Virus record (IMG/VR): IMGVR_UViG_649989947_000021
Length of the DNA: 37,504 nt
Source of the DNA: a virus
Lineage: Duplodnaviria > Heunggongvirae > Uroviricota > Caudoviricetes
Reading direction: 5' to 3' (one strand)
This document shows positions 15,216 through 32,586 of this stretch, in pieces. The notes below the pieces were generated by a model. The model was not told the DNA's origin and ran no database searches. It saw only the letters and a list, made by a program, of their open reading frames with translations. The position numbers and the translations under genes were made by a program. Within the stretch, counting starts at the first letter, position 1. Every line of letters begins with the position of its first letter.

Positions 15216-16724
15216 TTATTCTTCGGACTGGTCGTCGGTGTGCTGTGGCTCCTGTCGTTTCGTTGCGGCACTGCTGCCTCCTTTATCACTGGCCGGATCG
15301 GTATCAAATACCAGATCCAGCTTGCGGTTTTCATCAATTTCGGCCTTGCGCCGACGTTTGACATCATCCGGATTACGACCACCTGCACGTACCCAGTCTG
15401 ATTCTGTCGCCGCTCCACCACGAATCTGGATTTTCCAGGCCTCAGCCTCCTTAACAGGGTCAATCCACGGCATCACTGGTCCGGAATACACCGCGGTATA
15501 CAGTGAAGAACGGTCAAGATCGCGGGGTAGCCTGATAACACCGGATGCCACAGCCTGTTTCAGCCAGGCACGATACATCGGGCGGGTGACGGCACCAATA
15601 AACCAGTCCTGCAGGATCAGGTAGCCATCAGTAGACTCAACCAGTTCCTGACGCTGGGCGCTGTAAGTGCCGTTATAGTTGCGTGCCGTACTGGAAAAAC
15701 TCAGACGACTGCCCGCCGCCACGGCACGCAACTGACCATTACGAAAAGTTTCAAGGTTAGGATTGGGACGATCCGACTTCACCATTCCGATTTCTTCGCC
15801 GGGTTTCAGATCGTCGTAAATAATGCCTGGCTGAATGGTAAGCTCGCGTTCATTCTCCTTGCTGCCATTACCATCCGGTTCATAGCTCTGCCCGTCGCCT
15901 TTCCGGATGTACATCCCCAGAGCAGCGGCGATCCTTGCTGCAGTCAGCTCAGAATCTTCATACTCTTTCAGGGCACTGAGGCGGATCAGCACACCGGACA
16001 ACAAAGACGTCCCGCGCATCTGGTGCAGACGGCGAACAAATTTAAGATGCAGCATTCGCTCTGCATCCACTTCTTTGGTTTCCATCTGCCGCCCGGATAC
16101 GGGACGGCTTTTATACACCAGATATTTTTCGGGACGCCCCCAGTCATCAACAAACACGCCCTGATTCAGCCTGTTGCTCTCATCACTGGTCATGGGAATA
16201 AAGTCCGGCTCGAGCGCCTCCAGCCAGAAATGAACACCGGCAGAAGGCGTCAGGCTGTTTATGCGCCCGGAAACCATCTGGGCAAACACCTCACCATCGC
16301 GCAGCCAGGTACGCAGCATCAGACGTTCCAGCATCGGACGGGTAAACTGCCCGGTGACTTCCGGACTGACAGACCATTCACTCCATCGGGTGCGTATCTC
16401 CGCTGCCAGATCACGGGCAATGGCCCCATTGCGTAATACCGGATGTGGCTCGACAATAATCCCGTTTTTCCCCACCACCCGTTCTTCCAGCTTGTCAAAT
16501 ACACCAATAACCAGATCGTGGTTGTTATCAAGGTAACGGGCCTGCTCACGTAACGACACGGCCCCGTACTGGCTTAACTGGTCGGCAGTTCGGTTTTCCC
16601 GCCGGGCTTTGTGTGTCCGCGTCGTTTTTACGGCCTCATAAGCCTGGATCACCGCACGGGAACGCAGCCTTGCCGCTTTCCATCCTGGTGAAAAAACGCC
16701 AATCACATCATCAAGAATTGCCAT
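15216..16724 (-). CDS. portal protein
   Basis: Approximately 502-aa ORF between W-like gene and protease-capsid gene; start at ATG 16724 (MAILDDVIGVFSPGW...) overlapping the W stop by 1 nt. Confidence 0.85.
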   Translation of the reverse strand: MAILDDVIGVFSPGWKAARLRSRAVIQAYEAVKTTRTHKARRENRTADQLSQYGAVSLREQARYLDNNHDLVIGVFDKLEERVVGKNGIIVEPHPVLRNGAIARDLAAEIRTRWSEWSVSPEVTGQFTRPMLERLMLRTWLRDGEVFAQMVSGRINSLTPSAGVHFWLEALEPDFIPMTSDESNRLNQGVFVDDWGRPEKYLVYKSRPVSGRQMETKEVDAERMLHLKFVRRLHQMRGTSLLSGVLIRLSALKEYEDSELTAARIAAALGMYIRKGDGQSYEPDGNGSKENERELTIQPGIIYDDLKPGEEIGMVKSDRPNPNLETFRNGQLRAVAAGSRLSFSSTARNYNGTYSAQRQELVESTDGYLILQDWFIGAVTRPMYRAWLKQAVASGVIRLPRDLDRSSLYTAVYSGPVMPWIDPVKEAEAWKIQIRGGAATESDWVRAGGRNPDDVKRRRKAEIDENRKLDLVFDTDPASDKGGSSAATKRQEPQHTDDQSEE

Positions 16725-29474: not shown

Positions 29475-29768
29475 TCAGGAGCGCGATTGCGTTCCTGCCA
29501 GGGGCGGCTGAGTTGTATACCCCTGTAAAGCTCTGCCCTGATTTCTCACAAACAAGCGGAGCCTTGTGTTTGCTTCGTGCCTTGCTCTGTTCTCCTTGCG
29601 GAATGAAACAGGCTCAGCGTCAAAAGTGATTTCGTATACCTCCGCATATTTCAGGGCGACCTTCCGTCTCAGTGACGGAGGCAGCCCCTGTAACTGCTGC
29701 TGAATCCACTCTTCGTCTGCCTGGCAGTGCCTAGATGGCATCTCTGTCTGAACGTAATTCTGGGACAT
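29475..29768 (-). CDS. hypothetical protein in the cII position
   Basis: 97-aa ORF, 12 nt downstream of the cro-like stop, with GAAGGG ribosome-binding site; no similarity to lambda cII that I can see. Confidence 0.5.
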   Translation of the reverse strand: MSQNYVQTEMPSRHCQADEEWIQQQLQGLPPSLRRKVALKYAEVYEITFDAEPVSFRKENRARHEANTRLRLFVRNQGRALQGYTTQPPLAGTQSRS

Positions 29769-29780
29769 ACAAGCCCTTCA

Positions 29781-30053
29781 TCATTCGTTTTTCATAACTG
29801 CCGCATTTGTGGCTGTGTGACTTCTACGTAACAAATCAGGGATTGCATCTTCAGGATGGGGATAAAGATCTGGTCTTAACCCATGAGGAGTAACTTTCCA
29901 TTCCACAACTTCACATACACGCAAGACGAAACGAGCAGGAATTGTTCTTTTTGAAAACCATTGGTTCACAGCTTGCGGCGTAACGCCTAGATTTCGCGCT
30001 ATGGCATTTTGTGCAATTAGCTCACGAAGTGCGTCGTAATCATTTCCTTTCAT
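29781..30053 (-). CDS. cro: Cro-like HTH repressor (YdaS-like)
   Basis: 90-aa ORF MKGNDYDALRELIAQNAIARNLGVTPQAVNQWFSKRTIP... with helix-turn-helix; divergent from cI across an operator region. Confidence 0.7.
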   Translation of the reverse strand: MKGNDYDALRELIAQNAIARNLGVTPQAVNQWFSKRTIPARFVLRVCEVVEWKVTPHGLRPDLYPHPEDAIPDLLRRSHTATNAAVMKNE

Positions 30054-30187
30054 CGCAACCCACCAATCTAAACTTTATAAATTCAAGATTACATCAAGTT
30101 TAAATTAACATGCAAGTCCACAAAAGATCGAATACACTAAAATCAAGTAAAAATTTATCGAAACCAAGTAACCAGCAAGGATTAACA
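30054..30187. promoter_or_regulatory. OR-like region with divergent promoters and repeated AATCAAGT-type motifs
   Basis: Intergenic between cro-like (minus) and cI (plus); repeated CAAGT-containing motifs including the 13-mer AAATCAAGTAAAA at 30140..30152; candidate minus-strand promoter -35 TTGCAT (30115..30110), 16-bp spacer, -10 TGTAAT (30093..30088). Confidence 0.45.
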
Positions 30188-30877
30188 ATGAAAAACTTAA
30201 AGAGCACTGAAAATCGAATTACAAAGCTGCTACAGGAGAAAGGCTGGAGCCAAGCAGAGCTGGCCCGAAAATTAGGTGTCAGCGCACAGTCCGTACAGTA
30301 CTGGACAACAGGAAAAACATTTCCAAGGGGAAACCGGCTTGCCCAGTTATCCGAAATAAGTGGTTATCCGCAATCGTGGTTTTTAGGAGAAATCACGTCA
30401 CGGCAGTTCTCTTCAAAGGAAAAACATCAAGCAAGAACTGACAGTGTGGTCTTTAACGTGCTCGATGTTGAGTTTAGTTGCGGCGATGGAACACATGTCC
30501 GTGGGGACTTTATCGATGTAGTTCGCTCAATCGAGCTTGATCCTGAATATGCCCGTCGCCTTGTTGGCAATAGAGCATTTCAAAACATAGAGATTGGTAA
30601 CGCAAGAGGAGATAGTATGGCTCCAACAATAGCCCCAGGAGATCTTCTTTTTCTCGATAAAACAGTGAATTACTTTGATGGTGATGGCATTTATGCTTTT
30701 TGCTTTGATGGTGAATGCTACGTCAAAAGATTACAAAAGATAGGAAGTAAAATCATGGTGTTATCTGATAACCCAAATTACCAATCCTGGAGCATTGAAA
30801 AAGATGCTCTTGAGCTGCTTTATATCCAATCGAAGGTAATCTCATCTGTTCCATTCAATATAAATAGATTTGGTTAA
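30188..30877 (+). CDS. cI: CI-like repressor (HTH_XRE N-terminus plus S24 LexA-like autopeptidase C-terminus)
   Basis: HTH LLQEKGWSQAELARKLGVSAQSVQYW; C-terminal GDSMAPTI ... K motif; start set at ATG 30188 with AGGA upstream; an alternative upstream ATG at 30110 exists. Confidence 0.85.
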   Translation: MKNLKSTENRITKLLQEKGWSQAELARKLGVSAQSVQYWTTGKTFPRGNRLAQLSEISGYPQSWFLGEITSRQFSSKEKHQARTDSVVFNVLDVEFSCGDGTHVRGDFIDVVRSIELDPEYARRLVGNRAFQNIEIGNARGDSMAPTIAPGDLLFLDKTVNYFDGDGIYAFCFDGECYVKRLQKIGSKIMVLSDNPNYQSWSIEKDALELLYIQSKVISSVPFNINRFG

Positions 30878-30939
30878 TTATTGATTATTAAAGAAAAATT
30901 TACAAATCAAGTAAAAGAGACGCAGAAATCAATTTTTTC

Positions 30940-30969
30940 TTGACAACTCCATCAATCAAGATCTAACAT
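30940..30969 (+). promoter_or_regulatory. PL-like early-left promoter
   Basis: -35 TTGACA (30940..30945), 18-bp spacer, -10 TAACAT (30964..30969); flanked by AATCAAGT-type motifs including AAATCAAGTAAAA at 30904..30916. Confidence 0.45.
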
Positions 30970-31023
30970 CACACCATCAATTTTGACTTGATTTATTGTT
31001 AATTTTAAATTGATGGTGATTCA

Positions 31024-31452
31024 ATGAAAGATCTGACAACCGCTGAGATATCGAACTTAAACCACTTCGAAAAAGAATCCTTTGCATTAAATATTGCAAA
31101 TCTGGTAGGTGCTGCTCGTACTTTCCATTTAATTGATGGTGATCGCTCTAAAGAATTGGGGTTTGAAGTCATGGAGTTTGTTCATGAATACGCCCTGTCT
31201 GCTACTTATCCATTACATAATCACATAATCAACAAACAACCAAATAAAATCCGCACCCAACGCGAAGCCTGCGGCTTAACAACCGCCGAACTCGCCAGGC
31301 TGCTCGATCTCGATGAAGAAATTATCATCCAGTGGGAAAGCGGAGAGTACGAACCAACCATCAGCATGCTTATCCCTCTGGCTAATGTTCTTGGCTGTGA
31401 TCCAATGTTGTTATTGACTGATGCTTATAAACAAAATCAGGAGGAAGCATAA
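31024..31452 (+). CDS. first early-left gene: protein with C-terminal HTH_XRE domain and unknown N-terminal domain
   Basis: 142-aa ORF; C-terminal GLTTAELARLLDLDEEIIIQWESGEYEPTISMLIPLANVLGCDP is HTH_XRE-like; not N-like. Confidence 0.6.
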   Translation: MKDLTTAEISNLNHFEKESFALNIANLVGAARTFHLIDGDRSKELGFEVMEFVHEYALSATYPLHNHIINKQPNKIRTQREACGLTTAELARLLDLDEEIIIQWESGEYEPTISMLIPLANVLGCDPMLLLTDAYKQNQEEA

Positions 31453-31453
31453 G

Positions 31454-31645
31454 ATGAAAATGTTCAAAGGCCTTACCAACGAACCGGAGACAGCTTTTCA
31501 TCACATTGCCGTACTGCTTGAAGCGGGGTTAATCATTTCGGCTTCCGGTGATGAAGAATGTGATGAACTTTCGGATGATATCTTTTTACTGGCACAACAA
31601 TACGCCAAAAGCGCATGCGATGCATTTAAGGAGCAAAGAACATGA
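31454..31645 (+). CDS. small acidic protein
   Basis: 63-aa ORF MKMFKGLTNEPETAFHHIAVLLEAGLIISASGDEECDELSDD...; GGAGG upstream; starts 1 nt after the previous stop. Confidence 0.5.
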   Translation: MKMFKGLTNEPETAFHHIAVLLEAGLIISASGDEECDELSDDIFLLAQQYAKSACDAFKEQRT

Positions 31646-31833
31646 TAACTCCATTAAATATTCTTGAGGAAGTGGCGGCACAAATAAAAGAGAATACATC
31701 AATGCTTGAATTTATATTTAAGAATTCGCCCGACCAAGGAGAGACAGACGATTATTTATGCTGTCTCATTCGCTCCATGAATAAGACCTGTGAAATGGCT
31801 TACGAGTATATAGAAACACTACGCAACGAATAA
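31642..31833 (+). CDS. small acidic protein
   Basis: 63-aa ORF MITPLNILEEVAAQIKENTSMLEFIFKNSPDQGETDDYLCC...; ATGA overlap with the previous gene; AAGGAG upstream. Confidence 0.5.
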   Translation: MITPLNILEEVAAQIKENTSMLEFIFKNSPDQGETDDYLCCLIRSMNKTCEMAYEYIETLRNE

Positions 31834-32017
31834 AGAACACTCAGTAAAAAATCACACATAAAAACATGACGGCCTCTGGTCGTGGATTTCCACAACCAGA
31901 AAATAATGGTGATGCATGAAAAATAGAAACGCTTATAAAACCGCATTATTAATGGCTAATGCAGGATACTGGTCAGTTGCAATACTGTTTCTCAGAAAAG
32001 CATACGGGAAATAACAA

Positions 32018-32377
32018 ATGGCATGTACAACCATTTATAAAGATCGTCGCCGCATGGTAACAGCGGCACTCCGGCGGATGCAACGTAAAACAGGTAGTAA
32101 TCTGCTCGTCGTTGACCTCCCGGACGGAGAAATAACAACGATAGAAATAACTGAACAGTTCATGAACCAGTTGTTATTACGATTTGAGGGTCTTACCCGT
32201 GTTGAATATGGACGGACGGAAGGAGAAGCAACAATCCGTACCGCATACCAGAATGCCATCGGTATTAATCAACACACGGAATATCTCACTGAATCAGGGA
32301 AACTGATAGTGGACGGCCTTTTAAAAGAGGTTGTTGACTACGTAAAAGAGAAATATATCAGTGGAGGAATTAACTGA
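32018..32377 (+). CDS. hypothetical protein
   Basis: 119-aa ORF. Confidence 0.5.
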   Translation: MACTTIYKDRRRMVTAALRRMQRKTGSNLLVVDLPDGEITTIEITEQFMNQLLLRFEGLTRVEYGRTEGEATIRTAYQNAIGINQHTEYLTESGKLIVDGLLKEVVDYVKEKYISGGIN

Positions 32378-32586
32378 TGTCTGATTTATCCCCTCTTATA
32401 CACGAAAAAGTACAGATCATTATGACGATTGAAAATGGTCAGGTAATAAATACCCGTAAAGTTCACAATAACGAGATGATTGCCAGCATGGATACCTTCT
32501 TGTGGATAGCAAAGAAAGCGGGATATCAGGTAATCGCTCCTGATCTGGAGGAAATCGGTGACATTAACAGCAATACGAATTCCTGA
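32377..32586 (+). CDS. hypothetical small protein
   Basis: 69-aa ORF; start overlaps the previous stop; GGAGG upstream. Confidence 0.45.
   Translation: MSDLSPLIHEKVQIIMTIENGQVINTRKVHNNEMIASMDTFLWIAKKAGYQVIAPDLEEIGDINSNTNS

Follow-up and report, generated by a model that had tools for sequence, protein, structure and literature searches.

An inverted repeat in the PL leader of the Stx2f phage phi467 is probably a by-product of adjacent operator-like palindromes

Results

The DNA analysed here, referred to as the window, is a stretch of 37,504 nt that shares 99.9% identity with Escherichia phage phi467 (LN997803), which is listed among the Stx2f phages in the literature. Its immunity region has a lambdoid layout: a cro-like gene on the minus strand (29781–30053) is divergent from a cI gene on the plus strand (30188–30877), which is followed by 146 bp of intergenic DNA carrying a promoter-like site and by the first early-left gene (31024–31452, plus strand). 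The cI-type repressor consists of an N-terminal helix-turn-helix (HTH) and a Peptidase_S24 autocleavage domain. The nearest characterised repressors are remote, HK022 CI being 36% identical to the window's cI, and the sole match to a solved structure is the 434 repressor (E = 8e-4). The first early-left gene is an ORF of 142 aa that starts at ATG 31024; its product carries a C-terminal HTH_3 domain and matches phrog_4836, a “CII-like regulator”. Among related loci (L002–L016) the first PL gene is modular, with a conserved ∼60-aa N-terminal segment and the C-terminal HTH common to proteins of 138 to 265 aa from different prophages (phiP27 L10, Stx2a phages), labelled “DicA” or “CII-like”. A literature search on phi467, the operator sequence, IS10 fold-back inhibition and the lambda N leader returned no usable experimental data.

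Between cI and the first early-left gene lies a perfect inverted repeat (...TTGACAACTCCATCAATCAAGATCTAACATCACACCATCAATTTTGACTTGATTTATTGTTAATTTTAAATTGATGGTGATTCAATGAAAG...). Its arms, CACCATCAATTT (30972–30983) and AAATTGATGGTG (31007–31018), are complementary at 12 of 12 positions and separated by a 23-nt spacer, as read from the sequence and by a repeat finder. The left arm is made up of the discriminator CACC (30972–30975) and the left half of an operator-like site at the predicted transcription start, and the right arm of the right half of another operator-like site followed by the GGTG of a Shine-Dalgarno (SD)-like sequence. This SD-like GGTGAT (31015–31020, plus strand) ends 3 nt ahead of ATG 31024; the 3′ end of 16S rRNA, ...AUCACC, is complementary to it. 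An earlier note on this DNA had described a perfect 11-bp repeat (30972–30982 and 31008–31018, 25 nt apart), which is correct except that the repeat extends by one more pair, and had placed it at the head of the PL transcription unit, which is borne out by the order of cI on the plus strand, promoter and first early-left gene; “PL” is a reasonable name for the promoter by position. The note's further observation that the right arm overlaps the sole SD before ATG 31024 also holds, with four of the six bases of GGTGAT inside the arm.

When the dinucleotides of the whole window are shuffled, ∼10% of the shuffles contain a perfect 12-bp inverted repeat with a loop of up to 60 nt; for the 146-bp intergenic region, a perfect 11-bp repeat turns up in 1.3% of shuffles. 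Based on these frequencies, the repeat is moderately non-random. Only one other perfect repeat of at least 12 bp with a short loop is found in the window, a 13-bp repeat at 15677–15689 and 15721–15733 with a loop of ∼31 nt and arms that include GTTGCGTGCCGT and ACGGCACGCAAC. A perfect 11-bp inverted repeat, TTCATCACATT and AATGTGATGAA, lies at 31497–31507 and 31557–31567 within a small ORF (31454–31645) belonging to phrog_4587, a family of unassigned function.

The cI-to-PL regions of relatives were gathered from phage records, E. coli genomes, a set with one genome per species, and IMG/VR; the search of genome contigs with cI yielded only two close loci, and the scans of IMG/VR contributed far more. 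Three close leader classes could be distinguished: class A of the phi467 type, class B of the PhiR49_2 type, and class C, found in many EHEC prophages including Stx2a phages. The left-arm sequence CACCATCAATT is kept in all three. The right arm differs between them and reads AATTGATGGTG in class A, AATTGTTGGTG in class B and AATTGCATGGTG in class C, so that class B has a U-U mismatch in the middle of the arm, often together with GGCG for GGTG, and class C a one-base bulge.

A PL-like sigma-70 promoter (30940–30969, plus strand) is formed by TTGACA (30940–30945), an 18-nt spacer and TAACAT (30964–30969), and its form is kept in relatives as TTGACA-17-TAATAT. E. coli RNA polymerase favours initiation at the seventh base after the −10 hexamer, at an A that follows a pyrimidine. 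Since the first A of the operator-like palindrome occupies exactly this position in every class, with a pyrimidine (mostly C) just before it, the PL start is predicted to be A30976 (plus strand), the seventh nucleotide after the −10 hexamer, with C at −1. The earlier note had the repeat begin about where the PL transcript does; the location is right, but the best prediction puts +1 four bases inside the left arm. With a start at A30976, the CACC that pairs with the GGUG of the SD probably lies upstream of the PL start and would be missing from the PL transcript. C-rich discriminators (CTCACC, CTCACT, CTAACC) occur throughout the repressor family, including classes without a hairpin, indicating that CACC is a family trait and not special to the phi467 leader. 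A second promoter-like site, TTGACT-17-TAAATT (30983–31011), which would give a near-leaderless mRNA, was set aside because classes B and C do not conserve it.

More distant relatives, whose cI is 80–83% identical, all carry ATCAAGTTTAACTTGAC over the −35 element of PL and a perfect 17-bp palindrome, ATCAAGTTTAACTTGAT, exactly 6 nt past the −10 hexamer. From these loci we infer a 17-bp operator consensus, ATCAA(G/T)T-N3-A(A/C)TTGAT, and scanned the window with it (ATCAAKTNNNAMTTGAT). Allowing up to two mismatches, five matches were found compared to 0.51 expected, a number reached in 0 of 100 shuffles. Each of the five falls within one of the two intergenic regions that flank cI, at 30093 and 30142 (OR) and at 30928, 30976 and 30998 (PL).

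The first of the PL sites, ATCAATTTTTTCTTGAC (30928–30944, two mismatches), overlaps the −35 hexamer, with TTGAC common to both. The second, ATCAATTTTGACTTGAT (30976–30992), covers the predicted positions +1 to +17, reads ATCAA-N7-TTGAT and fits the consensus without a mismatch, as no other position in the 37.5-kb window does; its left half forms the core of the left arm. A third, weaker site, GTTAATTTTAAATTGAT (30998–31014, two mismatches), found in classes A–C only, follows 5 bp further on and directly abuts the SD, and its terminal ATTGAT is the core of the right arm. The OR region (30062–30158) contains 17-mers at 30093–30109 (two mismatches) and 30142–30158 (one mismatch) as well as a more degenerate one at 30062–30078 (three mismatches) that adjoins the cro start. 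Left-half motifs, namely ATCAAGT, ATCAATT, ATCAATC, ATCAATT and GTTAATT at 30906, 30928, 30951, 30976 and 30998, respectively, recur every 22–25 bp across the PL region, a pattern reminiscent of full and half sites arrayed in phase with the helix.

When IMG/VR was queried with only the two-operator pattern, at least 120 contigs matched, belonging to many leader classes. Directly upstream, 16 of 16 representatives encode a cI homologue whose helix-turn-helix, GWSQAELARxLGVSAQSVQYWT, is conserved. Because the 17-mers are confined to the flanks of cI and a cI homologue adjoins the pattern in all 16 representatives, we read them as probable operators of this repressor family, to which CI or Cro would bind. 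Several hallmarks of lambdoid operators are found together here: two-fold symmetry over ∼17 bp, copies confined to both flanks of cI, overlap with core promoter elements, and a co-occurring repressor with a conserved DNA-reading helix. In Pseudocitrobacter-type relatives (locus L017, ∼1340–1375, OR) a half-site is fused to GGTG on the cro strand, CTTGATGGTG...ATG, and precedes the putative cro start; this junction shows the same half-site-plus-GGTG arrangement as the phi467 right arm (compare window positions 30054–30078). An operator that abuts a ribosome-binding site seems to be a recurring design.

As RNA, the repeat could form a 5′-UTR hairpin. If the PL mRNA contained both arms, such a hairpin would hide the SD (GGUG) and gate or dampen translation of the first early-left gene, as the earlier note had proposed; in a variant of this reading, it might be a target of RNase III or stabilise the transcript as a 5′ stem-loop. 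Folding of the full-length leader does predict a stable structure of −17.5 kcal/mol (z −4.4; 0 of 200 shuffles as good), with a stem of 12+2+5 pairs that spans about two helical turns, and the equivalents in classes B and C reach −14.8 and −14.7 kcal/mol (z −3.3 and −2.9). The proposed hairpin is obtained for RNAs that start at 30970–30972 (z −4.4 to −3.5, the former value from 30970). With a start at 30976, the predicted +1 that would take CACC out of the PL transcript, the RNA folds into a different, G-U-rich structure of −12 kcal/mol that is indistinguishable from shuffles (z −1.7). Since in silico the hairpin is stable only with a start at or before 30972, the RNA reading hangs entirely on the start position. 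The SD is mostly paired in the prediction even for the 30976 start (mean unpaired probability 0.20), but its accessibility in the phi467 leader is unremarkable within the family, where values range from 0.18 to 0.83. A scan of 29500–32500 with the Rfam 15 covariance models gave no match at E ≤1.

Sequence variation among relatives argues against a selected hairpin. Across the 12 proposed pairs and 30 distinct leaders, 82.8% of the cells are paired, compared to 83.0% when partners are shuffled among sequences. None of the 12 pairs shows a change on both sides in these 30 leaders, and RNAalifold on the 30-leader alignment found no compensatory pairs. Pair-breaking variants occur at five positions and are frequent, with GGTG changed to GGCG in 7 distinct leaders and the U-U mismatch in all of class B. 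By our own count in the same alignment, roughly ten substitution types divide into ∼2 that are wobble-compatible and ∼8 that are disruptive, and the wobble-compatible share is close to a rough neutral expectation, under which about a quarter to a third would be tolerated. The repeat and its hairpin are present, imperfectly, only in classes A–C; ten other representative classes that we examined have none, and the hairpin is absent from the distant relatives (cI 80–83% identical) that carry the same operators. Translational gating by the hairpin, which lacks compensatory changes in 30 leaders and any equivalent in other relatives with the same repressor and operators, is thus not upheld, and we consider an RNA role of this kind unlikely. 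There is no sign in these alignments of selection for a translation-controlling RNA hairpin.

The predicted +1 inside the left arm fits a different role, in which the repeat protects against read-through in the manner of IS10 and IS50. Only transcripts from upstream (PRM-cI) would carry the whole left arm and hide the SD, and PL transcripts, starting within the arm, would be translated. In phi467-type and Stx2a-prophage-type phages, which lack a terminator after cI, the repeat would then have been co-opted as a promoter-discriminating device built of operator half-sites. In line with this, the best repeats are found in classes A and C, both of them without an intrinsic terminator after cI, and class B has one and a degraded repeat; a terminator hairpin is present in most other classes. 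The class B terminator lies just past the cI stop, as AACGGGCTTTGCCCGTT followed by a T-run (locus L002, 3790–3816; compare window positions 30878–30939). In terminator-less lysogens PRM-cI transcripts may thus read through PL with the complete hairpin.

However, the correlation between terminator and repeat comes from very few, related classes, and at least one other terminator-less class (L190/L187 type) shows no comparable repeat when its sequence is inspected. Read-through from cI is itself putative. Moreover, the unpaired probability of the SD in silico is 0.20 for the +1 transcript compared to 0.31 and 0.30 for transcripts that start at −4 and −60. As the SD of the own-promoter transcript is no more accessible than that of read-through transcripts, the predicted folds do not show the difference expected of fold-back inhibition. 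We therefore regard protection against read-through as improbable, and the co-option of the repeat as a promoter-discriminating device is equally hard to credit.

The right arm has a third exact copy, at 31131–31141, inside the first early-left ORF. It is part of a 16-mer, TTTAATTGATGGTGAT (31128–31143, plus strand), that is identical to 31005–31020 at 15 of 16 positions, where 0.04 such matches are expected, and encodes H-L-I-D-G-D. Three exact 11-mers within 170 bp, at 30972 (+), 31008 (−) and 31131 (−), and a downstream gene product that is itself an HTH protein would be consistent with CACCATCAATT as a binding site for another protein, for example the first early-left HTH product regulating its own expression. 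However, members of class A differ in the third copy by one synonymous and one non-synonymous change, and classes B and C lack it, even though the C-terminal HTH domain is common to their proteins. The spacings of 36 bp and 123 bp would be odd for a dimeric HTH protein. The sequence TTGATGGTG is over-represented in the window, with 6 copies compared to 0.63 expected, but the copies within cI encode F-D-G, with wobble positions that vary in relatives; these two copies were therefore dismissed as a coding coincidence. Taken together, the third copy does not behave like a conserved site and has no evident function, and a binding site for another protein is very improbable. By eye, the IHF consensus WATCAANNNNTTR does not fit the three copies, and a boxA-like CGCTCTAAA after the third copy was dismissed, as it is part of a coding sequence and class B does not preserve it.

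Discussion

We favour the reading, with a probability of roughly 0.6, that the repeat is a DNA-level by-product of the PL operator architecture in a lambdoid immunity type shared by phi467, PhiR49_2 and many prophages. CI of this family, and presumably also Cro, would recognise 17-bp sites with two-fold symmetry, one of them over the −35 element (30928–30944) and one over +1 to +17 (30976–30992) of PL, and repressor occupying them would block RNA polymerase. A third and weaker site (30998–31014) would follow after 5 bp in the classes of phi467, PhiR49_2 and the Stx2a prophages. The left arm would then be the left half-site of the +1 operator preceded by the four discriminator bases CACC, and the right arm the right half-site of the third site followed by the first four SD bases GGTG. 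Whenever two such palindromic sites stand 5 bp apart, their outer halves (ATCAATT and AATTGAT) are complementary over about 7–8 bp, so that most of the complementarity of the arms would be expected from the two operator-like palindromes. The other 4 bp would arise from the pairing of the SD with a C-rich discriminator, which is common across the family. The earlier note had also considered an unusually spaced operator; this DNA-level option comes closer to the truth, but instead of a single operator with unusual spacing we find two adjacent, ordinary 17-bp operator-like sites.

The pattern of conservation supports this operator-based reading. ATCAA, TTGAT and AATTG are invariant in the 30 distinct leaders, and three of four CACC positions, three of four GGTG positions and the spacer between the sites vary; the CACC and GGTG columns of the alignment are about as variable as the loop. 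Several observations run counter to it. The third site has 2–4 mismatches and occurs in classes A–C only, and it may not be a functional operator at all. The repeat is perfect over 12 bp, 5 bp beyond what the half-site consensus requires, and its arms are largely kept across three leader classes despite differences in loop sequence and downstream gene. Furthermore, the full-length RNA hairpin beats shuffles (z −4.4), and the 16-mer third copy at 31128–31143 is unaccounted for.

If the operator assignment is correct, it provides a testable consensus, ATCAAGT-N3-ACTTGAT, and a map of PL and OR for a widespread, uncharacterised immunity group that spans the Stx2f phage phi467, EHEC Stx2a-converting prophages and many E. 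coli, Pseudocitrobacter and metagenomic prophages. Although of modest value, such a map could aid the prediction of superinfection immunity and of the induction of Shiga-toxin phages. The locus also illustrates a general trap, as adjacent palindromic operators can mimic a leader hairpin. A functional hairpin would add a post-transcriptional layer to early-left expression, which nothing here requires, and protection against read-through would constitute a phage analogue of IS10 fold-back inhibition.

Both RNA-level roles have counterparts in known systems. In the lambda N leader, an RNase III-sensitive stem beside the N ribosome-binding site modulates N translation, and a phi467 hairpin would resemble it as a PL-leader structure that overlaps the ribosome-binding site of the first early-left gene. 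In contrast to the N leader, the phi467 leader is only ∼48 nt long and has no clear nut site by eye, its left arm probably straddles the transcription start, and the pairing is without evolutionary support. IS10 and IS50 employ fold-back inhibition of externally initiated transcripts. As in these elements, the own promoter of the phi467 gene is predicted to start inside the 5′ arm and the 3′ arm covers the ribosome-binding site; unlike in IS10 and IS50, the predicted SD accessibility is the same in both transcript forms, and the repeat lies in an immunity region and not at a transposase gene.

The closest parallel is offered by the operators OL1–OL3 and OR1–OR3 of lambda, with counterparts in P22, 434 and HK022, which are bound by CI and Cro. 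Like these, the phi467 sites are 17 bp long and two-fold symmetric, are present in several copies in each region that flanks cI, overlap core promoter elements and can stand only a few AT-rich bp apart (5 bp, or 21–22 bp centre to centre), and the phi467 repressor combines an HTH with an S24 autocleavage domain as lambda-type repressors do. They differ in their sequence, ATCAAGT-N3-ACTTGAT, for which binding is predicted from the sequence, and in their arrangement: in contrast to the three packed sites of lambda, one site lies over −35 and one over +1 to +17, with 48 bp between their centres, the third site is weak and limited to certain classes, and the repressor is only 36% identical to HK022 CI. 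Thus, the phi467 sites are best read as further lambdoid operators, and as such as an ordinary part of a phage immunity region of an uncharacterised type.
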